Source: Candidatus Latescibacterota bacterium (lineage in GTDB: Bacteria > Latescibacterota > UBA2968 > UBA8231). Taken from it: 64,000 nucleotides of DNA. The notes beneath the pieces are model-generated. The model saw only the letters and a list, made by a program, of their open reading frames with translations. It had not been told where the DNA came from and searched no databases. The stretch lies in the NCBI GenBank assembly GCA_965203175.1, contig OZ241867.1:5344001-5408000 (forward strand), in the 5' to 3' direction. Both the position numbers and the translations under genes were made by a program. Within the stretch, counting starts at the first letter, position 1. Every line of letters starts with the position of its first letter. Below are positions 34,541 to 52,563 of this stretch, one piece after another.

Positions 34541-34556
34541 GTGCCGGTTCCTCCGG

Positions 34557-35708
34557 TCAAATCCGGTTGTCATCGATATAATCCCAGTTATAGGCCATCC
34601 CCAACCCCGGTTCCTGCGATACGAGTACGCACCCTTCATCGTCCAAGGGATCGACAATCTGATCGAGATGCGGCGGGCTCTCGTCGTAATCGCGCCCAAG
34701 CCGCAGGAGACCACGCTCGTAATAGCGGCAGGTGGCCTCGGGGGCAGCCGCGGCCAAATGCACGTGCGGGGCACCAACCCCGTGTATTTCGCACTGCACG
34801 CCGTAGAGCTGGCACAAATTGATGAGCTTCCAGCAGCCAGTGATGCCGCCGTAGTTCACATCAATGCGCAGCATGTCGCAGCCCCCCTGCAACAGCCACT
34901 CGGCCCGCGCAAAGGGACCGCCCTTGACGTGTTCGGGGGAACAGATGGCAATGGAGGTCTGCTGCGTCAAGCGGCGATAGGCCTCCACCCGCGTCTCGAC
35001 CATCGGGTGTTCCAACCAGTAGTAGTTCAACTCTTCTAATTCCCGCGCCACCCACAGCGATTCCTCCAAGGTATAGACGCCGAACGGATCGAGCATCAGC
35101 ACAATATCGTCGCCCACGGCCTCGCGCACGGCGCGACAAATCTCCACATCCTCCTTGGGAAATCCCGGCAGTTGCGGCGCTGGCTCCCGCGTGTGCGGAT
35201 TCCAGCAGATGTTGGCGTGTACTTTGAAGGCTTTATAACCGCGCGCTACGCACTCTCGCGCCAGTTCTTGATACACCTCGGGGCCACCCAAGTTCGGGTA
35301 CGTGCTGGCGTATGCTTCGACCTTGTCGCGGGTGCCGCCCAAAAGTTGGTACACGGGTATACCAGCTTTTTGCCCAGCCAGATCCCACAGCGCGCAATCG
35401 ACAATGCCGAGTTCGTGTTCGGCGAGGCTGTGGCTAAACGTGGACATTTGATCCATCCAATGCCATAACTTCTCGCGGTTGAGGGGGTCCTCGCCAACTA
35501 GGAGGTTTTTGATGGCACCTTCCATAGTCGCTTTGTTGCCGCCCAGCATGTGTCCTGTGACGCCCTCGTCGGTGGAGATTCTAGTGATCGCACTAGTGCC
35601 TTCCACTTCCTCGTCATCAATCCACACGCCATAGCCCCAGCGCGAGCTAGCACTCCGGCCGCGGTGTTTGGTGCGAAAATGAATGACTTCGACATCGGTG
35701 ATTTTCAC
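34557..35708 (-). CDS. Mandelate racemase/enolase superfamily enzyme
   Basis: VDCALWDLAG..G.PVYQLLGG, FKVH, MLD, WLEHP, EIH and PGLG motifs; AAGGAGG RBS with GTG start. Confidence 0.9.
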   Translation of the reverse strand: MKITDVEVIHFRTKHRGRSASSRWGYGVWIDDEEVEGTSAITRISTDEGVTGHMLGGNKATMEGAIKNLLVGEDPLNREKLWHWMDQMSTFSHSLAEHELGIVDCALWDLAGQKAGIPVYQLLGGTRDKVEAYASTYPNLGGPEVYQELARECVARGYKAFKVHANICWNPHTREPAPQLPGFPKEDVEICRAVREAVGDDIVLMLDPFGVYTLEESLWVARELEELNYYWLEHPMVETRVEAYRRLTQQTSIAICSPEHVKGGPFARAEWLLQGGCDMLRIDVNYGGITGCWKLINLCQLYGVQCEIHGVGAPHVHLAAAAPEATCRYYERGLLRLGRDYDESPPHLDQIVDPLDDEGCVLVSQEPGLGMAYNWDYIDDNRI

Positions 35709-37174: not shown

Positions 37175-38881
37175 CTATTGGGGCAATAACGTCTTGATGT
37201 TGTCTTCATATACGACGATCCTATCTCCGTAGTCCCGCCGCAGCCCCATCAAAAACGCATCCGCCAAGCGGCTCTCCTCGGCGCGTTTCAATAGCGCCCG
37301 CGCCCGCTTCGCCGCCGTATCAAAAGGCTCGGGAGCACTGCCAAAATTCGACTTCAGCACCTTGAACATCGAGTAGTACTCGCCGCCCCGAGGCATGGTC
37401 TCCGGCCCGACCACTTGGGCGGCCTGTGCCGTCACCGCTAGCGGGCCGTACAACCGGCCGACCTCGGCGCTGCGCACGACGTCGATCAATTCTGGATAAA
37501 AGGACTGTTCAAAGGCGTGGATGTGAAATGTGCCCTGCGCGCCCTTGCCTGCCGTCCGCAAGGTGTATTCGTCGGCGAGTGCACCCATATCCTCCTCCGC
37601 CTCGATTCTCGCCTTAATCTCCACGGCCTCCTCCCAAGTTTGCACCATGATCTCCTGCAGCGTGACCTCCTCCGGTGCGGTGAATAACTCGGGCCGCTCG
37701 TCGTATAATTTCCTAACCGCCTCCGGCTCGATCTCGACTTGGTCCTTGACCGCCGTCTGCCTAAGTGCCAACAGCAACAATGCGTCTTTGCGGCGCTCAT
37801 ACCAGCGCACGATCTGCTCTTCGCGGTCAATCCCCCTTTCATAGGCCACGTGCAGGAATAAGGTACGGGGCAGCAACACGTCCTCGGCAAACCACCGCAC
37901 CGACTCGACAATGTCACCTGAAAAACCCATCTTCAACTCTGCGGCGTAATCCCAGAAATCGCCCACCGTGACACTACCTTCGCGAAATTGAAAGAGTACC
38001 GCTGCGCGCTCTGCCTCGGTGTACTCTCTGCGCCCTGCCGCGACCCATTGCTGTAGCTGCTGCAAGGTCTCGTCATCGGCCTGCAAGTCGATGTCGGCCC
38101 GCAGTTGCGCCAAGAATGTCTCTATCAGTTCGGTCGTCTTTTCCTCTCGCAGCTTGGCTTCCAACTCGTTGCTCGCGGTGGCAAAACTCACGGGCCGGGC
38201 GTGCATGACTTGATAGATCCCGAACTGGCCATTGGGCAGGCGGATCGGCTCGGAGTACTCGCCGACCGCAAGCGCGTTTATGTATTCTTGCAAATAGACC
38301 GGGATGCGTTTGGGAGGCAGATAGCCGTCCAGTTCCCCACCTTGTGGTGCCGTCGATTTGTGCTGCGATCGGCTGTGCGCCAGTTCGGCGAAATCCCGGC
38401 CGGCGGCAAGGCTTTGCCCGATCTCCTCGGCTTCTGCCTGGGTGTCGACGATGATCAGGCGCAGCTTGACCTCGCGCTCCTTGTCCGCGGCTTCGTAAGC
38501 CGCCCGCAACTCCTGCTCATCGACGTGGACCTTGGCGAGAAATTCGCGCTCGAACAACAAGCTCAACACCCGTTCGGCTTTTTCCTTCCGTAGCTTCTGC
38601 GCCACCTCCGGCACCTCGTCGAGTCCCCTTTTGATCGCTTCTTGGAGGAAAATCTCTTTGTCGATGACTGTCTGTAAGTAATCGCGGTAGCCGTCTAAGC
38701 CTGACTTCTTCGTCTTTAGCTGCGCCGGCAAGCGCTGTTCAAAGTCGATCAGTTGAGAAGCCGTTATCCGGCGGTCTCCCACTTCGGCCAAAACGGGATC
38801 TTCTAGTTCCTCGGCATCTTTTGCACAACCCATAAGTGCTAGGAAAACTCCACTGCAAACCAAGGACAGGTGCGCTTTCAT
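37175..38881 (-). CDS. Lipoprotein peptidyl-prolyl isomerase with two parvulin domains (PrsA/SurA-like)
   Basis: Lipobox LALMGC after ATG 38881; DFAELA..S....GGEL and a second MGALADEYT...G domain. Confidence 0.85.
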   Translation of the reverse strand: MKAHLSLVCSGVFLALMGCAKDAEELEDPVLAEVGDRRITASQLIDFEQRLPAQLKTKKSGLDGYRDYLQTVIDKEIFLQEAIKRGLDEVPEVAQKLRKEKAERVLSLLFEREFLAKVHVDEQELRAAYEAADKEREVKLRLIIVDTQAEAEEIGQSLAAGRDFAELAHSRSQHKSTAPQGGELDGYLPPKRIPVYLQEYINALAVGEYSEPIRLPNGQFGIYQVMHARPVSFATASNELEAKLREEKTTELIETFLAQLRADIDLQADDETLQQLQQWVAAGRREYTEAERAAVLFQFREGSVTVGDFWDYAAELKMGFSGDIVESVRWFAEDVLLPRTLFLHVAYERGIDREEQIVRWYERRKDALLLLALRQTAVKDQVEIEPEAVRKLYDERPELFTAPEEVTLQEIMVQTWEEAVEIKARIEAEEDMGALADEYTLRTAGKGAQGTFHIHAFEQSFYPELIDVVRSAEVGRLYGPLAVTAQAAQVVGPETMPRGGEYYSMFKVLKSNFGSAPEPFDTAAKRARALLKRAEESRLADAFLMGLRRDYGDRIVVYEDNIKTLLPQ

Positions 38882-38947
38882 AGACTTAGTAAACTCACAA
38901 TTTTTTGGGTGGAATGGATTAAACTGCGGTGCGGCGACCAACAGGCG

Positions 38948-41782
38948 CTAGCGGACGCTGCCATATACCGTCACGAAGGAGAGGGCGCCCGTCTCCCGAG
39001 CGCTCGGCTGTTCAAAGCGCTCTAGGTAACGTCTGCTCACCCTTATCCCCATCAGGGTTTGCAGGGAATAGCCCAGATACGGCTTGTCGATGGAAAATTG
39101 CACGGCGAGCGAAGTTTCGTTGAAATCCCCGGTCGTATCCCCGACGCGTAAACCAGCAGTGGCCGTCTCGTCCTGGATAAAATCGCGGAAGATCAGGTGC
39201 TCAATGCCCAACTGCAGCGACACGTGGTTCAAAAAGGAACGCCGCAGCAAGAGCGAGGAGATCCCGCTCCAGTCTTGGCGCTCGGCGGTCGAGGCGCTGG
39301 TTAGGCGGCCGATATTGTAGGGGGTGTCGTCCATGAAGAGTTCGTGCTTGAAGCGCGGTTGCACTGTCAGCCGGCCCAGCGAAAATTGGTAATCTATGCG
39401 GTTGATCAGCCCCAGCCGCCGCGTGTTGCGGGCGATCTCGCGGCCAGCCCGGTCGCGGGCATTGGCGTCGCGCTGCCGAATGAATTCGTGGATGAACTTG
39501 CCTTCGCTATGGATACCCTTGTAGGTCTTGCCAGTGAAGCCAGCCCACAGCCGATTGACTATGGCGTTGCGCATCGCCAGCGGATCCATAACCGGCTGCA
39601 TCGCCCCTGGCGAGTCCAGCGGCCGACCCAGCTCGGGCCGCGCTGTCACCCACTGGACCACGTCGTCGGCGATGTCATCCTGTACCAGCTTAAACATGTT
39701 GTAAAAGGCAACATTTCCCATCGTCGAGAAATTGCGCTCATAGGCCAACAGAGCATAGCGAGTCAGATTCTTTGCGTCGGTGGACAAGCGCTGCACTTGC
39801 TCTTGCCCCACCATCCACTTCAGCTCCGGCGTCAGCCACGCCCCTAAGTAGGCGTTGTACCCGCGCCGGTCGCGCTTATAGGGATAATCCGGCTCGTCGT
39901 CGTTTTCAAAGCGCTCGCCCCAACCATTGTTGTTCAAGTCGATAGCGAAGACGAATTCCGGCCGATCGACGTAGTGACGCAGGAACTGCTCTTCGTAGTC
40001 GGGCATGAAATTGGGGCGCACTGGAGTGTTGTTCTGGTTGAAATCGGAAATAAAGTCGTTGTTTTCGTCGAGACCGGGAAACACCGCTCCGTCAGCTAGC
40101 CCCTCCTTGTCGCGCCGCTGGTCGAGGCGGATGTCGTTGTCGTCGTTGTCATCTACCAAGTCGTAGAGAAACTCCGACCGCGCCTCTTCGTCGTCGCTGT
40201 AATTGATTCGCCCACCCTGATCGACGAGGAACGACGTGGTGTTGTACTCGGCATCCATGCTGAACGCCTCGCCGAACAGGAAGAAGGGGTAGAATTCTCT
40301 GGCGACGTTGACCATCCAACCCGTCGCCGACTCATCCCCCAACACGCCGGACGCGCTGTGGTGCGTCTGCCGAGCGATGTTGGGGTACTGCCGGAACTGG
40401 TGGTTGACATTGTACTCGCCGTACATCCGAAAGCCCGCCCAATCGCTGACCTCGAAGCTAAAGCCGAAGACCTGGGTCGCTGTCGGCAGGCCGTAGTCGA
40501 AAACAACCCACCGCTGATTGGAATTGTCTTGGACATTGCCGTCTGCCCGCACCACGTTTAAAAACTTGGATTGGGCACCCAACGGTTCATTGTCGGTCTG
40601 GACGTCCGAGGTGATATCGATCCGGTAGTCGTTGTTGAGTAGGAAGCGGAACTTCACCGCGGTGATATTGTTGACCAAGTCGGCATCGTCGATGATGTCT
40701 TCCAGCGCCATCACCGCCGGGTCTTCAGAAGAGAAATTGTACCGATAGGTAATCTCGCCCTCGCTGCCAACTCCTTCGGCAACGGGAAAACCATTGCGCG
40801 TGGTGCCACCCTCTATCTGCGGCAGAAAACCAAGCTGGCTGCCGACCAGCACGGTGTCGCGACCGCCGATTTGAGTATGCACCTCAATATCTTGGTTGAA
40901 AACCGTAGGGCCGCCCACGCCGTCCTCGGGTGAGTCGTCTGTTATGCGGACGATGATCCAGTTGATGCGATTTTCTAGTTGGCCGTTAGTCAGCTTGCCC
41001 TTGAAGGGATTGCCGCCGCGGTCGGATTGCGATCGGTCGTTGTGGGCGTTGACAAAGGTCGCGCCCAAGCGCACGGCGTTGAGGACTTTCCACTCGCCCC
41101 TGATGCCCAGCAAGTTGGTAAAGTTCTCGGTGACGATGGGGACGCGCACGCCCGGGGCGATCTGATGCACAGGCAGACTAATCCGCGACATCAGCACCGT
41201 AGCGGCCAAGCGGTCGGCAGCATAGTCAAATTGCACTCCGTTGAACCTAGTTTTGCGGAACGTCATCGGCGTCAGCGTAGTGTTGATCAGGTCGCCGATG
41301 GTCACCCCCAAATAGTGCTGGCCCTTGGTATCGGTGGCGATGAGCAGGTTGCTAAACCACGAGTCGTAGCGCCCGGACGGCTTGAGCAGTCCCGAGCCTC
41401 CCGAGCTGGTCGGCTGCCGCTGCCGCCAGTCGTACACCAGCCAACCCTTGGTCAAATAGCGCCCGTACAGGTCGTAGAAATAGTCGCCTTCCTGCCCGGG
41501 AGAAAAGTAGCGCCGGTAGGGATCCCTAGCGTAATTGGTGTACTCCCACTGCCAGCGGTATTCGGAGACGATTTCCTGCGGCATGTACCAGCGCTTCAAC
41601 GCGGGAACAAACGCCGCCTGCTGCATGAGTGGGCCGGAGGCATAATAGGAAACCCGGTCCTCCTCGTTGGTCCCCAAACGGTTGCCGTAGTCGGGTTGGG
41701 CACTCGCCGGCACCAGCCCGGCCAGCAAGCAAACCGCCGCCCACCGCATGCACGTCCCCATTGTTAGATCGCGTCGCATCAT
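38948..41782 (-). CDS. Large exported hypothetical protein, putative outer-membrane protein (paralogue B)
   Basis: Signal peptide, amphipathic aromatic strands, acidic DDNDD/DENND loops; colinear with 41779..44571. Exact start uncertain. Confidence 0.6.
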   Translation of the reverse strand: MMRRDLTMGTCMRWAAVCLLAGLVPASAQPDYGNRLGTNEEDRVSYYASGPLMQQAAFVPALKRWYMPQEIVSEYRWQWEYTNYARDPYRRYFSPGQEGDYFYDLYGRYLTKGWLVYDWRQRQPTSSGGSGLLKPSGRYDSWFSNLLIATDTKGQHYLGVTIGDLINTTLTPMTFRKTRFNGVQFDYAADRLAATVLMSRISLPVHQIAPGVRVPIVTENFTNLLGIRGEWKVLNAVRLGATFVNAHNDRSQSDRGGNPFKGKLTNGQLENRINWIIVRITDDSPEDGVGGPTVFNQDIEVHTQIGGRDTVLVGSQLGFLPQIEGGTTRNGFPVAEGVGSEGEITYRYNFSSEDPAVMALEDIIDDADLVNNITAVKFRFLLNNDYRIDITSDVQTDNEPLGAQSKFLNVVRADGNVQDNSNQRWVVFDYGLPTATQVFGFSFEVSDWAGFRMYGEYNVNHQFRQYPNIARQTHHSASGVLGDESATGWMVNVAREFYPFFLFGEAFSMDAEYNTTSFLVDQGGRINYSDDEEARSEFLYDLVDDNDDNDIRLDQRRDKEGLADGAVFPGLDENNDFISDFNQNNTPVRPNFMPDYEEQFLRHYVDRPEFVFAIDLNNNGWGERFENDDEPDYPYKRDRRGYNAYLGAWLTPELKWMVGQEQVQRLSTDAKNLTRYALLAYERNFSTMGNVAFYNMFKLVQDDIADDVVQWVTARPELGRPLDSPGAMQPVMDPLAMRNAIVNRLWAGFTGKTYKGIHSEGKFIHEFIRQRDANARDRAGREIARNTRRLGLINRIDYQFSLGRLTVQPRFKHELFMDDTPYNIGRLTSASTAERQDWSGISSLLLRRSFLNHVSLQLGIEHLIFRDFIQDETATAGLRVGDTTGDFNETSLAVQFSIDKPYLGYSLQTLMGIRVSRRYLERFEQPSARETGALSFVTVYGSVR

Positions 41783-44571
41783 TCTACGCCAGCGTACACC
41801 GAGATAAAGCTAGTGCCGAAGGAGCGACTCTCGCTCTGTTTCACAAGGCCATCGTCACTCAACACCACGGCCTCGTCCCACCGCTTGGTATAGCTAACGC
41901 CAAACTGCGTGGTGAGCTTGTAGCCGAGATAGTGTCCGAGGGTCGTCCACTGCACGGCCAAGACCAAGTTGCGGAAATCACCCGTGTCTTGAGTCGGACC
42001 ATCGTCCAGCAAGGCGTCTTCGTCTAAGACCAGCTCGCGGAAAACCGAATACTCCACTCCGCTTTCGAGAAAGGAGTTGTTCAACACAGGCAGCCGCGCC
42101 TGTAAAATGCCGATCCCCATCCACTCCTTGCGGTCGGGATCGGCCTGTAAAAAGGCCGTCTGATTGAGGTATTCGCTTTTCACCTTGGGTTGCAGCACGA
42201 ACTGGCCGATCTTGCGGGTGTAATCCGCCTTATTGATCAAACCCAGAAACTGCGAGCTTTCATTGAGAATGGGCGCATCGCCGCTTTTGAAAGCCTGACC
42301 GCGCTGACTGAATAGGCTGTATTTGAATTTGTTGATCACATTCAGCTTTTTGAGCGGTTCGTAATCGAATTGCACGTAGCTGTCATTGACCCAGGTGTCT
42401 CTGGCCGGCAGGATGTCCTCAACAAGGGCCAGCGAGACTGTTTGCAGGTATAGCGTCGGCTCGCGGCGCACGTCGGGGATATTGTCCGCGACCTTTTTCA
42501 GCGAATTGAAAAACCGCAAGCGGCCCCATTGCGGGTGGTCGCGGTCGTACGCGAAAACGCCGTAGGTCGCGTGGCTGCGGCGATTGGAGGATATCTCGTC
42601 CTCGCGCAGTCTCCCCACTGTCAATCGCGCCTCCGGCGTCAGGTGTTGGCCAACGTAGACATTGTAGCCCCGGTGATTCCTGCGGTAGGGGTAGTCGGGC
42701 AAGTCGTCGTTTTCAAACCGATCGATCCAGTTGTTGTTGTTGAGGTCAATGCCAAAGAGAAATTCTGGCCGATCGACGTTGTAGCGGAAAAACGGCTCCT
42801 CGTAGTCCGGGATGCGATTGCTCAGCGAGATGTTGTCGTTTTGGTTGAAATCCGAGACGAAGTCGTTGTTTTCGTCCCAACCGGGGAAGACGATCGGGTC
42901 GGGGCCACCTTGACCCCTGCGGCTCCAATCAGGCGTGCGATCTTGGTCGTCGTTGTCATCGACAAACTCATACATTGAGGTGCGTTCGTCGTCGTAGTAC
43001 ACGTTGCCGCCTGAATCGACGATAAACGCCGTCGTCGAGTAATCGGGATCCATGCTGAAGGCTTCGCCAAACAAGAAAAACGGATAGGCCTGCTTGGAAA
43101 CGTTGACCATCCAAGCCGCGGCGTCGCGGGCGTGGGTGCTCAGGTTGCGGTCCGCGTTGGCGAGCGTGAGATTGGGGTACTGGGTGTAGTCGCGATTAAT
43201 GTCGTACTCGGCATAGGCGTCAAAGCCCATCAACTGCAACACTTCCATGGTGAATCCGAACACCATGTTGGCCGATGGCAGCCCGTAGTCAAAGACGACG
43301 CGCTGCTGATTTGAATTGTCTGTCACATTGCCTGCGGCGCTGCGGACATCGAACAGCACGGCACCCGCCTGCGCCAAGTCCAAACCCGTAAGCGGCGGGC
43401 TGGGCAAGCTGCCGCGCCCGATCTGGCGATCCGACCACACCTGGATCTTGTAGTCGTTGGCCACCACGAGATCGAACTGGATATCGACGATCTCCGTCGG
43501 CCGCGGGCCAATGTACGCTAGGTCTGTGAAGTCGTAGTTGATGACGATCTGTTCTTCTCCGTCGGCAGCCAGAAACCCCTCCCGGGGAAAGCCGCCGGTA
43601 ATCACCGGCCATTTGGTCGGATCGACTACCACCTCCCGCAAGCGGAATTTCGTGCGCTTCTTGGTGTCAAAATCCTCGGCGGTAATGATGATGTCGTGGG
43701 CAAACAACGCGGCACCGCCTTGGCCGTCTTCTGGGGAATCGTCGCTCAGCACCACAGCGAGGACCCGGATCGGGTCGCTGCCTTGTCCGGCCCCCAAGGA
43801 ACCGATGAACGGGTTGCGTTCAAACGCCTCGGCTAGCGTCTGCGAGTGGTGGGCATTGACCATAGTCGCGCCGACCTTAACAAAATCCCCCACCTGCACC
43901 GTCGCCCGCCCCCCCATCATATTGGTCGCGTTGGTCGAGACGTTGGGCTGGCGCTCGGGGGTGGTGCCGAGGATCGCCTCGCTGGCGCGGGAGAACAACA
44001 GCGTCGCCTCGTATTTGTTCGCGGCAAAATCCATCTGGATGCCGTTGAAACGCGGCTTCGAAAAGGTTAGCGGGGTCAGGGCGGTGCGGATGCGCTCGCC
44101 GATGGTGATCGCCAAGTAATACTGATCGCGCGAGTCAGAGGAGACCGTGACGGCGTTGAACCACGAATTGAACTTGGGGTCTTTGTAGATCGACGAACCG
44201 AATTGGCCCGGTTGTGTCTGGTTCCAGTCGAAAACCAGCCAGCCCCAAGTCTGATAATTCCCATACAGGTCGTAAAACGGCCCGCCTTGGCGGTTGGTGT
44301 TGACGTAGCGCTGGTATAAGTCTCTGGCGTAATTCGAGTACTCCCACTGGCGAAAGCCGTAATCGACGTATAACTCCTGCGGCACGTACCATTTCTTGAG
44401 CGCCGGATCGAGCGCATCGAAGAGGACGCCCGGGCCGCGCGGCTCAAAGGTGAGTTGGGCTCCGCGCTGGGTCCCGAAACGACGGTCCAACGACTGGCCG
44501 GTCACCTCAGTCGCCAGCAATACCAGTGCAAAGAGGACCAGCCACGCAGGCATCCCCCTAGTTCTGCCCAT
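41779..44571 (-). CDS. Large exported hypothetical protein, putative outer-membrane protein (paralogue A)
   Basis: Signal peptide; KKWYVPQE, DDSPEDG and PGWDENNDFVSDFNQND motifs shared with paralogue B; GGAGG RBS. Confidence 0.6.
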   Translation of the reverse strand: MGRTRGMPAWLVLFALVLLATEVTGQSLDRRFGTQRGAQLTFEPRGPGVLFDALDPALKKWYVPQELYVDYGFRQWEYSNYARDLYQRYVNTNRQGGPFYDLYGNYQTWGWLVFDWNQTQPGQFGSSIYKDPKFNSWFNAVTVSSDSRDQYYLAITIGERIRTALTPLTFSKPRFNGIQMDFAANKYEATLLFSRASEAILGTTPERQPNVSTNATNMMGGRATVQVGDFVKVGATMVNAHHSQTLAEAFERNPFIGSLGAGQGSDPIRVLAVVLSDDSPEDGQGGAALFAHDIIITAEDFDTKKRTKFRLREVVVDPTKWPVITGGFPREGFLAADGEEQIVINYDFTDLAYIGPRPTEIVDIQFDLVVANDYKIQVWSDRQIGRGSLPSPPLTGLDLAQAGAVLFDVRSAAGNVTDNSNQQRVVFDYGLPSANMVFGFTMEVLQLMGFDAYAEYDINRDYTQYPNLTLANADRNLSTHARDAAAWMVNVSKQAYPFFLFGEAFSMDPDYSTTAFIVDSGGNVYYDDERTSMYEFVDDNDDQDRTPDWSRRGQGGPDPIVFPGWDENNDFVSDFNQNDNISLSNRIPDYEEPFFRYNVDRPEFLFGIDLNNNNWIDRFENDDLPDYPYRRNHRGYNVYVGQHLTPEARLTVGRLREDEISSNRRSHATYGVFAYDRDHPQWGRLRFFNSLKKVADNIPDVRREPTLYLQTVSLALVEDILPARDTWVNDSYVQFDYEPLKKLNVINKFKYSLFSQRGQAFKSGDAPILNESSQFLGLINKADYTRKIGQFVLQPKVKSEYLNQTAFLQADPDRKEWMGIGILQARLPVLNNSFLESGVEYSVFRELVLDEDALLDDGPTQDTGDFRNLVLAVQWTTLGHYLGYKLTTQFGVSYTKRWDEAVVLSDDGLVKQSESRSFGTSFISVYAGVE

Positions 44572-44603
44572 TAAATCCCTCCGTTAGAAAACAAATCTTC
44601 TTA

Positions 44604-44630
44604 GTCATGCTGAGCGCAGCGAAGCATCTC
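44604..44630. repeat. Half of a REP-like palindromic element
   Basis: GTCATGCTGAGCGCAGCGAAGCATCTC resembles the arm of a widespread intergenic repeat family as I recall it; no second arm seen here. Confidence 0.4.
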
Positions 44631-44643
44631 ATACCCACATGCG

Positions 44644-46842
44644 TTAATAAACCATCTCGACGATACCCACCACCGCATCCTCTTTGGCATCGGTGGCCAA
44701 ATGGACACGGAAGAGGTAAATACCCGGAGGCATCTGTTGTCCGGCAGCATTCGTGCCGTCCCACTGCGCGGAGAAACTCCCACCTCCTTGCTCGCCTGCA
44801 AAGAGCGTGCGGACGAGGTGTCCGGCTAGATCGAACACGCGCACAGTAAGCGGCGCGGCATCGACCAACCGCACCAAATCGCAGTGTATCCGCGTTTCGT
44901 CATTGATCCCATCTCCGTTGGGACTGAAGATACGCGGTTGGGCCGCGACGTTGATCATGAGGCGGCCTCCTGCCAGCGGCACTCTTACCGCTAAGTCGTT
45001 CGGGTCGGCGGCCCCGATAGGTATTAGATCGTCGTCCGCCTCCCCCAGATCGGCCGCATTGCCGCCGATGACCCGCTGGCCAAGGTCGTCGGTAGCACTG
45101 TTCCAAGCGGTGCCGGTAAAGGTCGTGCCAAACCTCAGCACGCGGCACTTGAAGCGAATTTTGACCAGCGCCGCCCGGCCCTTGGCCAAATCGCTTTCCG
45201 TGATTGCGGGAAAGCGCACCCGCAGATGCCGCTCGGCCACCGATTCCACGGCAAAAAGACCGCTGTCGTCTTGCACGGGTAGATTAGTCAGGTCCACGCC
45301 CGTGAAATCCGCTGTTTGCACTTGGCCGTCTGCGTGTACCACTTCGATAGTCTCAACCTCTTCAGAGCGCACGGGCGTGGCGATCTCAAAAACATCGAAA
45401 CCTATATCGACGCCCTGGCGCATCTTGGTCGGCAGGACGGCATACGTAAACGACACCGGAACGCCCAGTTCGACTTGGCGCGGGACGACCTCGCTGATGA
45501 TCCGCTCCGTCAGCGGCGGGTTGGACACTGTAAAGGCGAGCGCACCCAACACCCGGGCGGATTCCAAGTTTTGGCTGTTGAATTCAGCCTTCAACTGGAA
45601 ATAACGACGCGGGCCGGGCGAGAGGATGGGTACGCCCTGTGCGTCGTCGCCGATGTTTGCGGCGTTTACAGTACCCGCAGTTAGCTTATAGGGCGGCGAC
45701 CAGCGGCTCCAAGCGACTAAGTCGTCGCGCACGTCGCCCTTATCCGCCTTTTTCAAATCGTCGTACTCGTCCTGCGTCAACGCCACCCGGCTGCGCTCGT
45801 CAATGGGCAGGGCGTTGAAGAAGTCGAGGGCTTCTTCAACATCGTCAACCGCGTCTAAGTCAATCGCATCGCCTGTCGCCGTATTCGCAACCGCTCCTTC
45901 CCGCCACGGCACCTCTTCACCGCTGCCTGGATGCAGGCGAGTGAATTCCAACGGCGTATCGTCCCAGCCGCTGCGCGAACTGATCAGCAAGCGCGACAGG
46001 CGTTCTGTACCAAAGTGCTCCTCCTCCCAGCGGATGCGTCCCCACAGCGCCAATTCCTCGCCAAAATCGAAGATGTTGGAAAGGTAGTCGGCGCGGGGCA
46101 CAAACCCGGAGCCAAAGACGCGGAATTCCGCAACCTCAAACCCCACGGTGGTCTGCGATTTCAGGCGGATATAGCGGACGTATTGCGGCGGGATGGTCAG
46201 TTCGACGACCGGCTGTTCGTTTTCCGTCTCCAGTTCGACGGTGGTCAGCACCGGCTGATTGGCCACCTGCGTTTCTTCGCTGCCGTCGTTGAGCAGCAGT
46301 TCAAAGCCGCGCAGGAAATCGTTCTGGAACGGGAAATCGGGGGCGGGAAAATCGGGGTGCGCGTTGCGGGGGAAAAACTGGATTCGCTCGACGCCGAACC
46401 GCGCGCCGAGATCGAAGTCCATGATTACCCCAAGTGAGTTGACCTGGCTCGCCCCGCGGGCTGTCTTGCGCTCAAAGGCGGTCGTGGGATCGTCGTCGAT
46501 CATAAAAATTAGCTGGTCTTTTATGACCTGCGACAATATGGTCGGCGCGCCGAGGCGACCGCCGCGGTCGAGGAGGTCCAAAGCGATATTTACGGTCTCA
46601 TCCGCCTGTTGCGGCGACAACCAGCCCACCCGGCCGTCGGCATCAAACTCGAGCACATTGCCCGGGGTATTGCTAACCTCGACCTCGGTCGGACCGGTTT
46701 GTATTAAGGCCGCGATAGTCCCACCGCCGCTCGCCCACTCCAACCCATCCTCGCCACCCATGACAATAGTGCGGCGCTCCGCCCCTAGATTTTGAACCGC
46801 CAACAATACCAGCACCAGCGCCTGCGCGCGCGGATACAACAC
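44644..46842 (-). CDS. Exported protein with discoidin-like region and C-terminal FlgD-Ig/CHU_C-like domain
   Basis: Signal peptide; DFDLG..F.VERIQF; C-terminal FSPNGDGIND...VFDLAGHLVR...WDG...PPGIY. Confidence 0.75.
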   Translation of the reverse strand: MLYPRAQALVLVLLAVQNLGAERRTIVMGGEDGLEWASGGGTIAALIQTGPTEVEVSNTPGNVLEFDADGRVGWLSPQQADETVNIALDLLDRGGRLGAPTILSQVIKDQLIFMIDDDPTTAFERKTARGASQVNSLGVIMDFDLGARFGVERIQFFPRNAHPDFPAPDFPFQNDFLRGFELLLNDGSEETQVANQPVLTTVELETENEQPVVELTIPPQYVRYIRLKSQTTVGFEVAEFRVFGSGFVPRADYLSNIFDFGEELALWGRIRWEEEHFGTERLSRLLISSRSGWDDTPLEFTRLHPGSGEEVPWREGAVANTATGDAIDLDAVDDVEEALDFFNALPIDERSRVALTQDEYDDLKKADKGDVRDDLVAWSRWSPPYKLTAGTVNAANIGDDAQGVPILSPGPRRYFQLKAEFNSQNLESARVLGALAFTVSNPPLTERIISEVVPRQVELGVPVSFTYAVLPTKMRQGVDIGFDVFEIATPVRSEEVETIEVVHADGQVQTADFTGVDLTNLPVQDDSGLFAVESVAERHLRVRFPAITESDLAKGRAALVKIRFKCRVLRFGTTFTGTAWNSATDDLGQRVIGGNAADLGEADDDLIPIGAADPNDLAVRVPLAGGRLMINVAAQPRIFSPNGDGINDETRIHCDLVRLVDAAPLTVRVFDLAGHLVRTLFAGEQGGGSFSAQWDGTNAAGQQMPPGIYLFRVHLATDAKEDAVVGIVEMVY

Positions 46843-46867
46843 AGCCGACTATCTCCTCATAGGTTGG

Positions 46868-49441
46868 TCAATACGCCACGTGCAGCAGGCGCTGCACTCC
46901 CGTTTGCCGCACTCCGCGATGCGAATCCGCGTCAATGTCGATGCGCAAGATGTAAATCCCAGGCGGCACCAGCCGTCCCTGCTGGTCATCGGCCACCCAG
47001 TCGAGCACGTATTTCCCCGCCACTAAGGACTTCTGAGCATCAAGTCGGCGCACCAACCGCCCGCCTAGATCGTAGATTCGCACTTTGACCGGGCGCACGC
47101 CGCTCAACCGACGTACAGTAAAATCAATGGTTAGCGCGTCGTTGACCCCGTCGCCGTTGGGAGTCACTACTTCCGGCTGGATGCCTAGGTCGCCGAGCAC
47201 GTTGTTGTCCTGCACCGAAGCTAGGATCTGCAGCCCCTGACTCTGGGCCAATTCGGTCACGTCCGCCGGATCGACCCGTTGCCACGAGTTGGCCAACGAC
47301 GAATTGCCCATCGCCGCTTGGAGCACTGCTCCGGGGGAAAACAGAGCCGTCGTAAACCGCACCTCGATCAGATCGACCTGTCCGCCCTGCTTTACCAGCC
47401 GGTCGAGGCGCAACCAGAGTGAGTCGGAGCGCGTCTCCATCACCTGCACATTGGCCAGCTCTTCGGCTTGGCCGCTTTCCCATTGTGCCGTGCTGCCCAA
47501 GCGCAATGCGCCGAATTCGAGCGACATGTCTGGCGGGGTGCGCACTAGGATCTCGTCGAAGCCCAAATCCTGCGACGTGAAGATCGGCTTGACAAATAGC
47601 GAAACCTCCTGCGGCGCGCCCAAGCGCGCAAAGACCCCCGCGTCCAGTTCGCCTTGCAGTTGTTTCGCTACCGGCGGGTTGAAGTTCAAGCGAATGGAGT
47701 GCAGACTGGCTGCATCCAGGGGATCTGGGGTCGTCAACCGGGCGCGCAATAGCAGGTATTGGCGCGGGCTAGGCGAAGCAATCGGATCGCCGGACCGCGC
47801 GTAGGGCGCACTCCAGTTGCTCCAGTCGGACCCAGCCACCTGTAGGGTGTCGATCCGGCCCTTTTTAAAAAAGCCCAACTTCGCGTATTTGCCCTCCGAG
47901 ACTTCCGTGCCACCACTGTCGTAGTACCGGTATGCTTCGGCGACCTCATTACCGGTGCGGGTCTGGATTTGCACGGACGTGCCTGGAGGCGTGTCCGCCT
48001 CCCATTCAATCGATATCAAATTCTTCGCACTGCCCAGCGGAATCAGACCCGAAACCAGTTCCACCTCCGGGTGGTAGCCTTCGCCGTACAACTGGACTTC
48101 GCGGATCCGCGCTTTGGTTCCCTCGCCGCGCACCGACTTATCGATGAAGGGATAGGAAACGCGCACGAAGCGGGCGGGCATAGGTTGAAACCTGTTGGTT
48201 TCGGTATCCCTGCCTATGCCGCGCACCTGTTCGGGTGCGGTCCATATTAGACCGCCGCCCGCCGCCGGCGTGCCGTCCGAAATCTGAATTTCGTATATGT
48301 TGAAGCTGGCCCCGGAAAGCCGCCCACCGCCTGCGAAGAGATTGTACCACATCTGTACGGTATCCAGCCAGAACGACACTCCCAAGTCGAACTCCAAGAA
48401 TCGCTCCCCGAATGTGACACTCCCAGAGGCAAATGCCGCGAGGTTGAAGGTCAAGTAGGTTCCTTCGCCGTCGAGCAGGTTGGCCGCCGACCCCTCGTGG
48501 GAACTCTCCGCGCTACCCTTGCGATCCGCGATCAACCCTTGGGAGATATTCCGGCCCACTTCATAGACTTCTAACTCGGCTAAGCGCGGCCGCTCGCGGC
48601 GATAATAGCGGACGGTGCCGCGCACTTGGGGATCGATTACCTCGTAGATCTCCGGCTCGATCTCAACTTCCCCTTCTCCCACCCTCTTGTAGTAAACCAC
48701 ATCCCCTCGATTGGCCTCTGTGAGTGTCTCGTACTCCCCTTCCGATACCTCTTGTCCCCTCATACCATTGCTCTCGGTCACCACAACCTGCACAAAGCGC
48801 ACCATATCGCCTTCAAAATCTCGGCCCGGCACCATGTGAACCAACTCCCCGCCGTCCAGATCTACCACGAATAAACGCTGGCTCTTGTTGTCACTGGGAG
48901 TCCGGAAAACCTGTTTAGTGGGGACTATGCCCGCGATCTGGGCACCCTTGTCGGCGTTGTCGGCGGTCAGCACTACAAATTGCAGAAAGGGGTCGCCCTC
49001 CCCTTCGGGTACGAACTTCAGTCCGATCCGAGTGGCGTTGATCAAGCGACCCATATCGACCTCGAACCACCAATCCTGCAACGGGCTATCCGGGTCGGGT
49101 TCCCAGTAGGTTGTCTCGTCCCCATCGAAGAGATTGGGGATATCCTCCTCGTTGGAACCCGCTTTTATAGCATCGAGGATGGTCACGCTCTCGGGTTTTC
49201 CAGCGGAGCGCAGCAGATGTTCGAGAATGTCCGTCACGGCGTTGTGGTCCTTGGGGACAAAGGCCGGGCGAACCTCGCCGCTGGGAGCAATAGCCAGCGT
49301 CCCCGGGACGAACGTCCAATGGCTCCAGTGGCTCTGGGTGTTCACCACCACTTGGTTGGATCCCAGACTGTGATCCTGTCCCCAAACGAAATTGCACAAC
49401 CCGAGGCTCATCCCCAGTAAGACCATGATCCTTCTGCTCAT
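46868..49441 (-). CDS. Exported protein with discoidin-like regions and C-terminal FlgD-Ig/CHU_C-like domain
   Basis: LFDGDETTYW, WFEVDMG; C-terminal TPNGDGVND...IYDLGGRLVR...VPPGIY. Confidence 0.75.
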   Translation of the reverse strand: MSRRIMVLLGMSLGLCNFVWGQDHSLGSNQVVVNTQSHWSHWTFVPGTLAIAPSGEVRPAFVPKDHNAVTDILEHLLRSAGKPESVTILDAIKAGSNEEDIPNLFDGDETTYWEPDPDSPLQDWWFEVDMGRLINATRIGLKFVPEGEGDPFLQFVVLTADNADKGAQIAGIVPTKQVFRTPSDNKSQRLFVVDLDGGELVHMVPGRDFEGDMVRFVQVVVTESNGMRGQEVSEGEYETLTEANRGDVVYYKRVGEGEVEIEPEIYEVIDPQVRGTVRYYRRERPRLAELEVYEVGRNISQGLIADRKGSAESSHEGSAANLLDGEGTYLTFNLAAFASGSVTFGERFLEFDLGVSFWLDTVQMWYNLFAGGGRLSGASFNIYEIQISDGTPAAGGGLIWTAPEQVRGIGRDTETNRFQPMPARFVRVSYPFIDKSVRGEGTKARIREVQLYGEGYHPEVELVSGLIPLGSAKNLISIEWEADTPPGTSVQIQTRTGNEVAEAYRYYDSGGTEVSEGKYAKLGFFKKGRIDTLQVAGSDWSNWSAPYARSGDPIASPSPRQYLLLRARLTTPDPLDAASLHSIRLNFNPPVAKQLQGELDAGVFARLGAPQEVSLFVKPIFTSQDLGFDEILVRTPPDMSLEFGALRLGSTAQWESGQAEELANVQVMETRSDSLWLRLDRLVKQGGQVDLIEVRFTTALFSPGAVLQAAMGNSSLANSWQRVDPADVTELAQSQGLQILASVQDNNVLGDLGIQPEVVTPNGDGVNDALTIDFTVRRLSGVRPVKVRIYDLGGRLVRRLDAQKSLVAGKYVLDWVADDQQGRLVPPGIYILRIDIDADSHRGVRQTGVQRLLHVAY

Positions 49442-49463
49442 CGCACCTATCTCCTGAACACCC

Positions 49464-51494
49464 TCAATAGACGACCGATACGACCCCAGATTTTGTCTCC
49501 CGTCCCTCCTCGGTAGAAGCTTCCACCCGGCAGATGTAGAGCCCCGGGCTTACCTTTTGTCCGCTCCCATCCATCCCGTCCCACCGCTGCACGTGCCGCC
49601 CCGCAGTATCGAGACCATTGTATACCTCCCGCACCCGCCGTCCCGCTAGATCCCGGACCTCCACGATCACCGGCGAGGGTGCTGTCAGCTTGAGCAGGTC
49701 ATAGGAGATGTCCAACCCATCGTTGACGCCGTCCCCATTAGGTGTGAAGATTCCTAAGCTCAGCGACAGCGAGCCTAAAAGCTGACCACCCAGCGACAAC
49801 GACTGGACCGATAGGGTGTTGCCATCGAGGAGCGCCGTAGAGTTACCGGGCTGGATCGGCTGCCGGATATCCTGCGGCATCTCGCTATTGAACACCCGGC
49901 CCGCGAAGATCGCCCCGAAGCGGAATATCTCGCCGTTGAACACCACTTCTATCAACTCCTCGGTCCGATTGAAATCGACCTTCGGCATCGCTACTACTAG
50001 GCGGTCCTCCCCCACTTCCAACTCGGTGAAAGCCACTTCTTCCCCACCGATCCGCACCGCGTCAACGTCCGCCAACCGCCCTCCGTCAACGGATATCTCT
50101 AAGCGGTCAAAACCCGGGGAGTCCAACCCGATTGTGGGCCGGATAGCATAGGTAAACCGAGTCAGTTTGGCGGTCTCCACCTGCCAAGGTTCGATCTCAC
50201 CCACCAGTTCCGCTGCCGCCGGCGGCGACGCGGCGAACTCCACATAGCGCAACTCACTGCCCGCAGCGGCATCCGATTCAAAATCCACTTGGAATTGGAT
50301 GAACTGGCGCGGCCTAGCCGCCGTCAGCGGCACGCCTAGACTGTCGGCGAAGTCGTAGGGGATGGACCACAGATCCCAATTTTCCGCGTCGCGAGTGATC
50401 TTGCCTTGCTCGGATAGTTCCAGCCGCCGGTACGCCCCTCGGGTCAGCGGCCGGCCCCGATCGTTGTAGTTTACCTGTTCGTCGCCCCGGAACGTCTTGC
50501 GCCAGTAGATATTGGGATTGGCGTCGCTCCCGCTCTGGCTGCGGATGGCAACTTTGGCCGCAGCGTCTTTGTGCCCCGACCAGCGGACCCAACCCAGCAC
50601 CATTTCCTCCTCTAGATCGAGGATATTGGACGCGTAAGAGGCCGTGGGCACATAGCCTGGGGCGAAAATTTCGAACTCTGCGATTTCCCAGTCTCGGTTT
50701 TGTGACGACACGAAGAGCGCCAAGCGACGGATGTACTCCCCCGATAGCTCCACATCGACGGTAGGCTTAGTATTTTCCGTGACCTTCCGTTCGGCGTGGA
50801 ACAGCAGATCCTTGCGAAAGAAAAGATCTGCATGCGCCCTGTTGACAAGGCCCACACAGTTGCCGAGATGTCCCGCTCCGCTCGTCGAACACAGATCTGC
50901 GAAGCCGATTCCTAGTTCGGTGTTGGTCGCCGTATTGGTCCATACTTGGAAAGCCTCGATGTAATTTTCTTGGTTTTCGGTTCGCGTGAAAAATCGAATC
51001 TTATTCACGGCAAAGAGACCACCCAAGTCGAACAGAAAGGTCTTCCCGACCGTCAGATATTCCCCCACATTCGACCCACAGCCAACGCGTATCTCGCGCC
51101 TGCAATCAGCGCCTTGCAAGCCGACGTACGCCGTTTCTCTGTCGAGGTCGGTGATCTGCTGTATATCGTCCGCTTCGACCCAAGCTTGGAAGCCCTGAGT
51201 TTGCAAATAGCCGCCCCGCTCCCATACCGTCGGAGCAATGTTCTCCTCTGCGGTAAAGAACAACGGTGAAATCGCGTCGGCTCCGATGATCAGGGACTCG
51301 CCGGACCCGAGTCGAGCCGCCTCGATATCGGCCCAGCTAAACTGGCGCAAGTCGGCTTCACCGCGTTCGACCTCCGGCGGCGGCGGTAGATTCTCACCAC
51401 CCAGCCGATAGATCGTCAATCCCGCGACCGGGACGCCCATCGCTAAGGTCATAAACAGCGCGACTAAGAAGCGACACAAAGGCATTTTGGCCAT
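49464..51494 (-). CDS. Exported protein with discoidin-like region and C-terminal FlgD-Ig/CHU_C-like domain
   Basis: GGAGG RBS before ATG 51494; FDLGGLFAVNKIRF; C-terminal FTPNGDGVND...DLAGRRVR...WDG...SPGLY. Confidence 0.75.
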   Translation of the reverse strand: MAKMPLCRFLVALFMTLAMGVPVAGLTIYRLGGENLPPPPEVERGEADLRQFSWADIEAARLGSGESLIIGADAISPLFFTAEENIAPTVWERGGYLQTQGFQAWVEADDIQQITDLDRETAYVGLQGADCRREIRVGCGSNVGEYLTVGKTFLFDLGGLFAVNKIRFFTRTENQENYIEAFQVWTNTATNTELGIGFADLCSTSGAGHLGNCVGLVNRAHADLFFRKDLLFHAERKVTENTKPTVDVELSGEYIRRLALFVSSQNRDWEIAEFEIFAPGYVPTASYASNILDLEEEMVLGWVRWSGHKDAAAKVAIRSQSGSDANPNIYWRKTFRGDEQVNYNDRGRPLTRGAYRRLELSEQGKITRDAENWDLWSIPYDFADSLGVPLTAARPRQFIQFQVDFESDAAAGSELRYVEFAASPPAAAELVGEIEPWQVETAKLTRFTYAIRPTIGLDSPGFDRLEISVDGGRLADVDAVRIGGEEVAFTELEVGEDRLVVAMPKVDFNRTEELIEVVFNGEIFRFGAIFAGRVFNSEMPQDIRQPIQPGNSTALLDGNTLSVQSLSLGGQLLGSLSLSLGIFTPNGDGVNDGLDISYDLLKLTAPSPVIVEVRDLAGRRVREVYNGLDTAGRHVQRWDGMDGSGQKVSPGLYICRVEASTEEGRETKSGVVSVVY

Positions 51495-51541
51495 GGCTAC
51501 ACCTCCCCAAGGGATTTCGGAGAGTCTAAAAGGGCGGCACT

Positions 51542-51584
51542 TAAATCCAAAGGGGAGATGTGGCCACATCTCCCCTTGGATTTA
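51542..51584. terminator. Strong intergenic hairpin (terminator/attenuator or mRNA-stabilising stem)
   Basis: 28-bp perfect palindrome AAGGGGAGATGTGGCCACATCTCCCCTT (51550-51577), extendable with one bulge. Confidence 0.65.
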
Positions 51585-51612
51585 TGCTGTTTCCCAATGA
51601 CTTGGGATCGGG

Positions 51613-52563
51613 CTACTGCTGAATATAAGCGGCCTTGATGCGACCCCAGCTTTCTTCCTCGACCGCCGTCCCCGTCACCATTTGGCTGAAGTCCACGCGT
51701 GGGTCAGTCGGCGCGAGAAGGAAGTCCGAGCAGTTACCGCAATCGAACCACATCTGGATGTTGGGGTTGATACCCCAGCCGCCAGTGCTGCCGGAATTGT
51801 CTTCGGCATCATTGTCCATATCGTGGACCACCCAACCGAGGCCGATAGTATTGCCTTCGACGAAGGTGTGCTCCGGCTCGCTTTCTGTGGGGCCTACCCA
51901 GTGAAAATCATCCCAAGCGGCCGACATGATCTCGATGCGGGCAGTAACTTCGCCGGCGTTCGACTCCCCGTCTAGCTGGAAGCCGTAATCGCCCCACGGC
52001 GGGACGTCATGCCAAGTCGACTTGCTTTGGAACCACCACTTCCAGCCAAAAGGCTCCAGCGGCGGAAAACGGCAGTGGGCGTTTTGTGCGTAACGGCCCT
52101 GGTTGCGCTGGTGCTCCTCTTCGCTTTCGAAATCGCCGGCCGCGTACCAATGCTGGTCGCCGCCGTGGTCGGAGTCAATCATAATCTCCCAGCTATCGTC
52201 GCCGCCGGCGACCGCGCCGACGCCATTGCGATCCCAGTAGTTGTCGAAGCGCTCCATCATGAAATAGAGGCGATTAGTGCCTTGGCTCCAACCGGCAACG
52301 ACCCTGAAGGACAGATTGCTCTCGTCATTTTCGTGTCCCAACCCAAGATAGTATTCGAAGTGGGACTCAAAGGGCACGTAATAATCCTCAGGGACGATAT
52401 CCCATTCGGACAAGTCGCCATCCAGCGTGGGTTCCATACCAGCAGGGAACTGGAACAGGGTACCGGATTCAATGCCAACGATGTCGACATGAGCCGATAC
52501 CGCGCTGGCCTGTAGCATGATGCCTAAGGCCAAAATACTCGCGATGCTCAAAATCTTCTTCAT
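51613..52563 (-). CDS. Exported CBM9/DOMON-like protein with C-terminal TAVEEESWGRIKA tail
   Basis: Signal peptide from ATG 52563; PTLDGDLSEW and GWSQGTNRLYF; homologous to the N-domain of 33446..34540. Confidence 0.75.
   Translation of the reverse strand: MKKILSIASILALGIMLQASAVSAHVDIVGIESGTLFQFPAGMEPTLDGDLSEWDIVPEDYYVPFESHFEYYLGLGHENDESNLSFRVVAGWSQGTNRLYFMMERFDNYWDRNGVGAVAGGDDSWEIMIDSDHGGDQHWYAAGDFESEEEHQRNQGRYAQNAHCRFPPLEPFGWKWWFQSKSTWHDVPPWGDYGFQLDGESNAGEVTARIEIMSAAWDDFHWVGPTESEPEHTFVEGNTIGLGWVVHDMDNDAEDNSGSTGGWGINPNIQMWFDCGNCSDFLLAPTDPRVDFSQMVTGTAVEEESWGRIKAAYIQQ

Follow-up and report, generated by a model that had tools for sequence, protein, structure and literature searches.

A multicopy cassette of lectin-like proteins, giant barrels and tagged exported proteins in a Latescibacterota genome: a candidate accessory module of the type IX secretion system

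What kind of surface structure is encoded by an operon of seven exported proteins, when diverged copies of the same operon recur dozens of times in one bacterial genome? The question is raised by positions 37175..52563 of a 64,000-nt stretch of DNA from a Candidatus Latescibacterota bacterium (OZ241867.1, 5,344,001-5,408,000), which is called here the window and to which positions refer. The operon comprises four protein families: a small exported protein with a conserved C-terminal tag (A), lectin-like proteins with a C-terminal domain (CTD) resembling that of type IX secretion system (T9SS) cargo (C), a putative giant outer-membrane barrel (B) and a double-parvulin lipoprotein (P). The cassette probably builds a cell-surface sugar-catching device. 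The reading favoured here, with a probability of roughly 0.45, is that the locus is one of 41 copies of a T9SS accessory module building surface lectin platforms, for which we infer both the physical contacts and the direction of transport.

The operon and its four protein families

The seven open reading frames (ORFs) lie on the minus strand, in the order A, hairpin, three C, two B and P, and are separated by -4 to 118 nt:

51613-52563, minus strand: g1, family A, 316 aa from MKKIL; exported, CBM9-like by language-model neighbours only
51616-51669, minus strand: C-terminal tag of g1, TAVEEESWGRIKAAYIQQ; no transmembrane helix
51543-51583, minus strand: stem-loop between g1 and g2, with a core 10-bp perfect stem at 51552-51575
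49464-51494, minus strand: g2, family C, 676 aa, from an ATG behind GGAGG; FlgD_ig/CHU_C-type domain with PNGDGVND at about 49467-49751
46868-49441, minus strand: g3, family C, 857 aa; F5/8 type C (CBM32-like) domain, and C-terminal PNGDGVND domain at about 46871-47176
44644-46842, minus strand: g4, family C, 732 aa; CBM32 at residues 81-245, beta-sandwich stalk, and PNGDGIND domain at 44647-44937
41779-44571, minus strand: g5, family B, 930 aa; predicted giant outer-membrane beta-barrel
38948-41782, minus strand: g6, family B, 944 aa; second predicted barrel of the pair, with a 4-nt overlap with g5
37175-38881, minus strand: g7, family P, 568 aa from MKAHL; lipobox LMGC and two SurA/PrsA-like halves, each with a helical and a parvulin part

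An alternative, longer ORF of g2 starts at 51569, within the hairpin. The layout agrees with the original prediction, made from the letters of this DNA, of a seven-gene operon with the same order, short gaps and internal paralogies: g5 and g6 are 39% identical over 974 columns, g2 and g4 28% over 684 columns, g2 and g3 25%, and g3 and g4 24%. In Pfam, the C-terminal ends of g2-g4 match FlgD_ig and CHU_C, g3 also matches F5_F8_type_C and g7 the Rotamase families, while g1, g5 and g6 have no match; NCBIfam adds to the seven proteins only sub-threshold matches to T9SS-CTD, FlgD and peptidyl-prolyl isomerase models. The proposed N-terminal export signals are borne out by the genome paralogs, a hydrophobic N-terminal segment, used as a proxy, being present in 28/31 A, 57/61 B, 139/152 C and 35/37 P proteins.

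To count the families, every ORF of 120 aa or more in the closed 6.58-Mb genome was compared by blastp with the seven proteins, with a query coverage of at least 60%. This yielded 61 genes for B, 152 for C, 37 for P and 31 for A, which amount to 613 kb or 9.3% of the genome length. Of the 41 loci that contain B genes, 23 combine B with A, C and P, 8 with C and P, 3 with C alone and 2 with A and C, and in 5 B is the only family. The gene order of the window, A-C-C-C-B-(B)-P, is found repeatedly, and so is a second one, P-C-B-C-C-(B)-A. Tandems of B genes are found repeatedly in this and in other genomes. Orthologs of the window locus keep the exact gene order, and the 80 B loci analysed in other genomes, with 10 kb on either side, contain A, B, C and P in 55 cases, ABC in 11, BCP in 7, BC in 4, B alone in 2 and BP in 1, many of the incomplete loci sitting on short contigs. 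Conservation of the gene order and its presence in several copies had been proposed as a check, and both features were found.

The C proteins had been described as lectin-like subunits bearing a CTD, in agreement with the AlphaFold2 model of g4 (pLDDT 86.6, pTM 0.77), which consists of a CBM32 domain, beta-sandwiches and a CTD. Residues 81-245 adopt the CBM32 fold (Z 15.3, root-mean-square deviation (rmsd) 2.0, 123 of 126 residues of a Clostridium CBM32, with dozens of additional CBM32 matches), the C-terminal 270 residues match the C-terminal part of PorU including its CTD (Z 12.0), and no catalytic domain appears among the structure matches. At the sequence level, F5_F8_type_C (PF00754) is found in g3 with 32.9 bits against a cut-off of 28.2, and CHU_C (PF13585, cut-off 27) scores 35.2 bits in g3, 36.8 in g4 and, just under the cut-off, 26.9 in g2; the FlgD_ig scores over g2-g4 are 24.7-49.6 bits (37.2 in g2 and 49.6 in g4). 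From the modelled fold, the C proteins are predicted to be non-catalytic, CBM32/Ig-like proteins of lectin type, and sugar binding is likewise a prediction.

C is tied specifically to B. The motif PNGDGxND is placed 85-100 residues from the C-terminus in 121 ORFs of the genome, and 121/121 belong to family C. Of the 61 B genes, 39 are immediately preceded by a C gene, 12 by another B, 1 by P, 1 by A and 8 by another gene or none, and in other genomes a g4-type C gene directly precedes B in 74/74 distinct loci. PorP/SprF, the barrels dealing with type-B cargo in Bacteroidota, are absent from the genome, where the best score is 21.3 bits, on a PorV-like gene, and from all genomes of the source's family (0/75).

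B is predicted to be a large outer-membrane beta-barrel of a new family, as had been proposed for the two proteins of about 930 aa, and the g5 model and its fold matches do not depict a soluble enzyme. The AlphaFold2 model of g5, built from a 35-sequence alignment, is of modest confidence (pLDDT 64.9, pTM 0.60). Beyond residue ~141 and up to the C-terminus it shows some 24-29 long strands in antiparallel arrangement, plus an inserted beta-sandwich. Two segments are nearly invariant in the alignment and of low confidence in the model: an aromatic stretch at 18-149, with many W and Y, and a stretch with many D and N at 528-626, where the runs DDNDDQD, DENNDF.SDFNQN and DLNNN.W.DRFENDD resemble calcium-binding loops. 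The best Foldseek matches are LptD, MtrB, Deinococcus SlpA and the FimD/PapC ushers (E 1e-8 to 1e-4, with a TM score of ~0.2; FimD/PapC at E 2e-5), and a structure search independent of Foldseek returned outer-membrane barrels only, with SlpA (7zgx_A, Z 13.4, 416 residues aligned, rmsd 8.6) and MtrB (Z 12.6) on top and FimD/PapC at Z 9.1-9.7. A complex prediction with B residues 29-930 and the g4 CTD (636-732) scored 0.00 in both runs, which counts neither for nor against a contact.

Sequence searches do not connect B to any described family. Against PDB sequences g5 has no match, just two alignments at E 0.36. Pfam at E <= 1 gives nothing for g5, g6 and nine distant relatives except sub-threshold SlpA_C (PF21620) in two of the relatives, at 16.8 and 19.8 bits with a cut-off of 35, and none in g5/g6; PorP_SprF (PF11751 / TIGR03519) is silent in all eleven even at E <= 1. 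No SLH domain matched B, no Plug (PF07715) or TonB_dep_Rec was found in g5 and g6 at E <= 1, and the identical search, as a positive control, detects Plug in 30 other genes of the genome. In the operon proteins, Pfam gives no match to usher or PapD-like chaperone families. B proteins of this genome are 861-1049 aa long; the family forms 965 clusters at 50% identity among 1.84 billion representatives, and a word-indexed search retrieved more than 1000 members, all "hypothetical", the named ones being from Latescibacterota or Gemmatimonadota.

The last gene product, g7, was correctly recognized as a two-parvulin lipoprotein, with its lipobox LMGC and two parvulin-like stretches, at residues 140-255 and 424-503 in the numbering of the 588-aa ORF, the second detected by a family-specific hidden Markov model (HMM). 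Rotamase_2, Rotamase and Rotamase_3 (PF00639 / PF13145 / PF13616) reach 46.5-51.9 bits against cut-offs of 21.7-27, and the PrsA foldases are the nearest solved relatives (E 8e-8). The N-terminal half aligns with the C-terminal one (E 7e-8), indicating an internal duplication; 34/37 P paralogs have two parvulin-like stretches, and a lipobox-like cysteine was found by regular expression in 22/37. None of the domains of PorE (TPR, beta-propeller, CRD, OmpA_C) was found in g7, which matches Rotamase families only.

The tag, the hairpin and the distribution in the phylum

The g1 protein ends in TAVEEESWGRIK, and the consensus of the A tails is TAVE-x2-3-[ST]WG-x-[IVL]K, with a further 3-8 residues up to the terminus. 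The tag is kept in 28/31 A paralogs, the remaining three ending in a PKD domain, and in 56/57 distinct A homologs of other genomes. Its core pattern occurs within the last 25 residues of 101/12,211 ORFs and anywhere in 124, and the DNA pattern occurs 46 times in the genome vs once for the reversed control. When the preceding S/T is included in the pattern, 65 carriers are not A proteins, and about 93 small exported binding proteins are tagged altogether. All of the carriers are small exported proteins without a membrane anchor; some of the non-A ones fill the A position at loci lacking an A gene detectable by blast, others stand in tandem arrays. Among 19 non-A carriers scanned for domains, 11 are PD40 propellers, 1 has WD40, 4 have Cache domains and 3 show no match. 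The arrays include up to 11 genes, e.g. L104:4533-19242 (G000:C1:1361532-1376241) and L105:11788-17947. The sequence of the tag suggests a hitherto undescribed signal for sorting or docking that lacks an anchor; it has no family model in Pfam or NCBIfam, and a literature search found no description of it.

The WGRIK tail that had been noted in g1 therefore stands, and it is a general one; the accompanying CBM9 label comes from language-model neighbours only, CBM9 (PF06452) having no hmmscan match in g1 at E <= 1 and being present in 13%, 37% and 94% of the members of the nearest Atlas clusters. In the alignment of 29 A homologs a DxDH motif and several acidic residues are invariant, which suggests a metal site. 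The signal peptide of g1 ends in ...VSA|H (cleavage site 52480-52490) and A|H is found in most A homologs, with a histidine at or near the mature N-terminus; some homologs carry that histidine a few residues further in. The putative site recalls the histidine brace of copper proteins such as the LPMOs.

The strong hairpin noticed after g1 has a minimum free energy of -38.8 kcal/mol (z = -5.7), and 0/200 shuffles fold as well. A hairpin of -25 kcal/mol or lower lies within 90 nt after the stop codon in 23/31 A genes; the corresponding share is about 2% for C, about 3% for B, 0% for P and about 2% for 300 long ORFs taken at random, a significant difference (Mann-Whitney p ~1e-13) for paralogs that are not independent. 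Expression of the A genes thus appears to be separated from that of the other operon genes. RNA-library contigs of two studies (X15 and X16 from one, X17 and X19 from the other) cover the locus and span the g6|g5, g4|g3 and g3|g2 junctions; none lies over 51532-51594, which holds the hairpin, and uncovered parts prove nothing. Contig depth is 167 and ~250 (X15, X16) and 17.7 and 23.6 (X17, X19) for g1, which has a contig of its own, and 8-34 (X15, X16) and 2-13 (X17, X19) for g2-g6, a per-contig measure that cannot rank genes; depth and hairpin gap were accordingly not used as evidence of attenuation.

The system had been proposed to be distinct from the canonical T9SS, and its core genes were therefore looked for. 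The genome encodes one SprA translocon of 2133 aa (490+124 bits, over the cut-off), PorU (632 bits, over the cut-off) and a PorV-like protein adjoining PorU, and SprA is present in 163/168 genomes of the phylum, including all members of four B-less families; the proposed distinctness is therefore not maintained. Since SprA occurs phylum-wide, also without B, the cassette is not an alternative to T9SS and rather looks like an add-on. Among the 168 genomes, 105 have B, 88 the tag pattern and 89 the PNGDGxND pattern. Families f1, f5, f6, f9, f11 and f12 possess the three together, and all are absent, save single stray hits, from f2, f3, f4 and f14, where SprA is retained in all four. B is present in 87/88 tag-positive genomes, and 62/63 B-negative genomes lack the tag; the PNGDGxND DNA pattern, with 109 occurrences in the genome vs 0 for the control, follows the same families. 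These matching profiles indicate that B, the type-B-like CTD and the tag travel together, in related genomes that are not independent and that represent only a handful of separate gains or losses. Weak PorP/SprF matches were obtained in 26/31 genomes of a B-less sister family.

In the literature and the family databases no description of B, the tag or the cassette was found, and two papers on Latescibacteria genomes (PMC4454575, PMC12993501), whose supplements lie outside the search, do not mention the cassette in the parts available. As to the proposal of an undescribed system, no member maps to a known one in the family scans or in this literature. New in the present analysis are the extension of the A tail to a general tag on about 93 small exported binding proteins, its co-distribution with B and the hairpin behind most A genes.

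Around the 80 loci of other genomes 230 flanking ORFs were picked and 82 scanned. The flanks are mixed, with SBP_bac_5, TPR, PMT_2+TPR, FG-GAP/ASPIC, pentapeptide, DUF6785, enolase-superfamily, AraC and restriction-modification genes. In the window, an SBP_bac_5 solute-binding gene of 702 aa (52729-54837, minus strand) lies directly upstream on the same strand, and is kept in L023, L024, L026 and L030. Polytopic membrane proteins with DUF6785+DUF6784 (at least 9 hydrophobic segments) are encoded at 24228-26213 (minus), 55884-58034 (plus) and 62351-63982 (minus); the genome has 56 copies of DUF6785, and for 33 a B gene lies no more than 15 kb away, vs 21% expected. DUF6785 as a specific component was rejected, the family being equally multicopy (20-88 first-look candidates) in Latescibacterota families without B. 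A Plug-domain gene (TonB-dependent receptor; 3799-5934, plus strand) is one of 30 in the genome, which also has one SusD-like gene; the 61 giant barrels are thus found side by side with receptors of the conventional type.

Loci of the type P / C-B-B-x-A-C-C contain an extra gene, for a protein of ~580 aa with a C-terminal TPR, between the second barrel and A, and are repeatedly flanked by FG-GAP/ASPIC-UnbV, multi-TPR and pentapeptide-repeat genes. Additional features of these loci and of the window are the following:

33446-34777, minus strand: A-like paralog downstream of the operon, 443 aa, blastp class A with coverage >= 0.6, with a PKD domain at residues 380-437 in place of the tag; may belong to the locus as an outlier, and is also present at the orthologous loci L023, L025, L027 and L028
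35782-36815, minus strand: small gene pair between the cassette and the downstream genes, with a G+C dip to 0.51, one gene with DUF3368; may be a toxin-antitoxin-like insertion
28001-30000: region of G+C 0.52 vs ~0.60, with an N6_N4 DNA methylase gene at 28187-29032; probably a restriction-modification or mobile islet
L054:15747-17495, L055:14556-16310, L058:15790-17532 and L062:15673-17409: TPR extra gene

Weighing the possible functions

According to the favoured reading, the cassette would be a hugely enlarged and multiplied analog of a T9SS cargo/shuttle/lipoprotein module. The C proteins would cross the outer membrane via SprA, and the cognate B would then take over and hold them, as PorP/SprF does with type-B cargo in Bacteroidota. 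P may sit on the periplasmic face of B, in the place of PorE, or act as a dedicated foldase; A would be made in excess and dock to the platform via its tag. The 41 diverged copies may provide varied specificities for the glycans of food particles or of a sponge or coral host, and the size of B would also leave room for inward conduction of the captured substrate.

Several observations weigh against this reading. B is unrelated to PorP/SprF in sequence and has about three times their size, with ~26 vs 14 strands, in a model of modest confidence (pLDDT 64.9), and P has none of the PorE domains. The assignment of the CTD to type B is not secure, because TIGR04131 (cut-off 35) reaches only 27.4 bits in g4 and 20.0 in g3 and FlgD_ig scores equal or exceed those of CHU_C in the C proteins. 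PorP/SprF-like matches occur alongside B in some f7, f9 and f12 genomes, so that any replacement is not strict. GldM (TIGR03517, PF12081) and GldL (TIGR03513) gave no match, in a search whose TIGRFAM controls were silent as well. The scheme accounts neither for the ~65 tagged proteins away from B loci, nor for the use, as an anchor, of so large a barrel with its conserved N-terminal domain and its motifs resembling calcium loops, nor for a separate parvulin protein at each locus. Among the 82 flanking ORFs no consistently linked carbohydrate-active enzyme, peptidase or regulator was found, hence the substrate cannot be read from the context. In addition, paralogs and related genomes are not independent observations.

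Uptake in the manner of the polysaccharide utilization loci (PULs) is the main rival, a possible, though not a probable, account. B would be the substrate channel, a SusC counterpart without a TonB plug, C the surface glycan binders, A a soluble, hemophore- or SusD-like shuttle capturing ligand and docking on B via the tag and P an accessory lipoprotein, the copies differing in substrate. Diversification is on a PUL scale, with 41 loci and 61 B genes vs 30 Plug receptors and one SusD-like gene; the tag is found on small proteins with ligand-binding domains, as in the 19 scanned, and co-distributes with B; the A genes have their own strong hairpin. Barrel size, the conservation of the N-terminal 120 residues and the nature of the tagged proteins are better explained in this way than by the T9SS module, and the acidic loops, also among the most conserved parts of B, the SBP_bac_5 gene upstream, here and at orthologous loci, and the frequency of DUF6785 near B point in the same direction. 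However, DUF6785 is equally expanded in B-less families, no Plug/TonB-box domain or evident energy coupling is present, glycoside hydrolases, lyases and peptidases show no consistent linkage among the flanking ORFs scanned, the scheme offers no route by which A would leave the periplasm, and arrays of tagged proteins lie far from any B. PUL-like uptake and the T9SS module are not mutually exclusive. With a similarly low likelihood, B could be a new receptor or translocon class recognizing the anchor-less tag on about 90 small ligand-binding proteins per genome; protein sorting or ligand delivery would then run parallel to T9SS and, with the T9SS-delivered lectins, constitute a fourth type of nutrient-capture apparatus on a large scale beside SusCD, TonB receptors and cellulosomes.

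Two other explanations carry less weight. B might act as an usher-like pore that exports or polymerises tagged A proteins, with P as chaperone, the tag as secretion or donor-strand signal and C as T9SS-delivered tip or accessory adhesins. A small first gene followed by a strong hairpin (23/31 A) recalls the major pilin genes, one chaperone-type gene is present per locus, the tag is a short, strand-like, conserved C-terminus, and FimD/PapC are among the fold matches of B (Foldseek E 2e-5, Z 9.4-9.7). Usher matches are nevertheless weaker than those to SlpA, MtrB and LptD, all being generic barrel matches, and no usher or PapD-like family was matched; A would be a CBM9-like globular domain with no incomplete Ig fold; A and P shift position and strand among locus types, whereas the C-B adjacency is fixed; and a large number of tagged proteins are encoded away from any B or P. 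This explanation is considered improbable. Slightly less credit still is given to an envelope scaffold, in which SlpA-like B pillars would organise a surface layer of A and C and the diversity of copies would bring surface variation instead of nutrient capture. SlpA is the best structural match of B and two distant B relatives have sub-threshold SlpA_C scores (16.8 and 19.8 bits), and A is apparently the abundant component, judging from its own hairpin; yet B lacks SLH and coiled-coil domains, the SlpA match has a high rmsd (8.6) and is generic, and 41 coexisting lectin-domain loci fit ligand diversity better than a single lattice.

The T9SS accessory module remains the favoured reading. The four families, which take up close to 10% of a 6.6-Mb genome and similar fractions in dozens of relatives from sponges, corals and sea water, include a giant barrel and an A tail that are absent from the family databases. 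If B is an enlarged stand-in for PorP/SprF, the cassette would reveal a T9SS organisation outside Bacteroidota and a cargo-shuttle principle that scales to more than 100 cargo proteins; if B conducts substrate or receives the tagged proteins, a new principle of outer-membrane transport or sorting would be involved. Either way, the cassette offers a concrete handle on the binding of host or food glycans by uncultured symbionts.

Comparison with known systems

The predicted barrel resembles Deinococcus SlpA (the S-layer deinoxanthin-binding complex), MtrB, LptD and FimD/PapC in having more than 24 strands, and these are its best structural matches. B shows no significant sequence relation to them and has no SLH domain, decahaem partner, LptE or usher plug domains, and the TM score is ~0.2. 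P shares with SurA, PrsA and PEB4 the parvulin domains and the SurA-type helical modules, and with PrsA the lipoprotein anchor; however, those foldases are encoded by one housekeeping gene, whereas P is a tandem duplication of the whole module and has 37 locus-specific paralogs.

The cassette is similar to the SusC/SusD-based PULs of Bacteroidota in its dozens of diverged loci filling a large share of the genome, and in the combination of an outer-membrane barrel of ~900-1000 aa, a lipoprotein of ~550 aa and non-catalytic carbohydrate-binding surface proteins. It differs in the absence of a Plug/TonB-dependent receptor domain, a SusD fold, linked glycoside hydrolases and dedicated regulators, and its surface proteins would be T9SS cargo, while those of PULs are lipoproteins.

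The closest parallel in layout is provided by the type-B T9SS operons, as described in the available parts of two papers (PMC12618676, PMC9143113). In Flavobacterium johnsoniae a cargo gene is followed by a shuttle gene, in cognate pairs, and a gene for a PorE-like lipoprotein is present in five operons; PorP, a 14-strand barrel of ~33 kDa, binds cargo and PorE (PMC9143113), the set of Porphyromonas gingivalis being PorP-PorE-PG1035. Like these operons, as far as those parts describe them, the cassette has presumed cargo with a CTD of ~100 residues that resembles the CHU_C kind, a barrel gene directly downstream of the cargo gene and a lipoprotein gene in the same operon (C-B-P), with several diverged cargo/barrel pairs per genome and with SprA, PorU and a PorV-like protein present. 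On the other hand, PorP/SprF have ~300 aa and 14 strands, while the cassette barrel has 861-1049 aa, ~26 predicted strands and no PF11751/TIGR03519 signal; PorE consists of TPR, propeller and OmpA_C domains, while the cassette lipoprotein is a double parvulin; and each cassette locus has 2-4 cargo genes, often two barrels and an extra tagged, CBM9-like protein. Type-B systems occupy ~10 loci in Bacteroidota, compared to 41 in this Latescibacterota genome, where the binding of CTD to barrel is a presumption. Since B and P do not belong to PorP/SprF and PorE, respectively, the two kinds of module are alike in layout and, presumably, in the way they work, with no family kinship.

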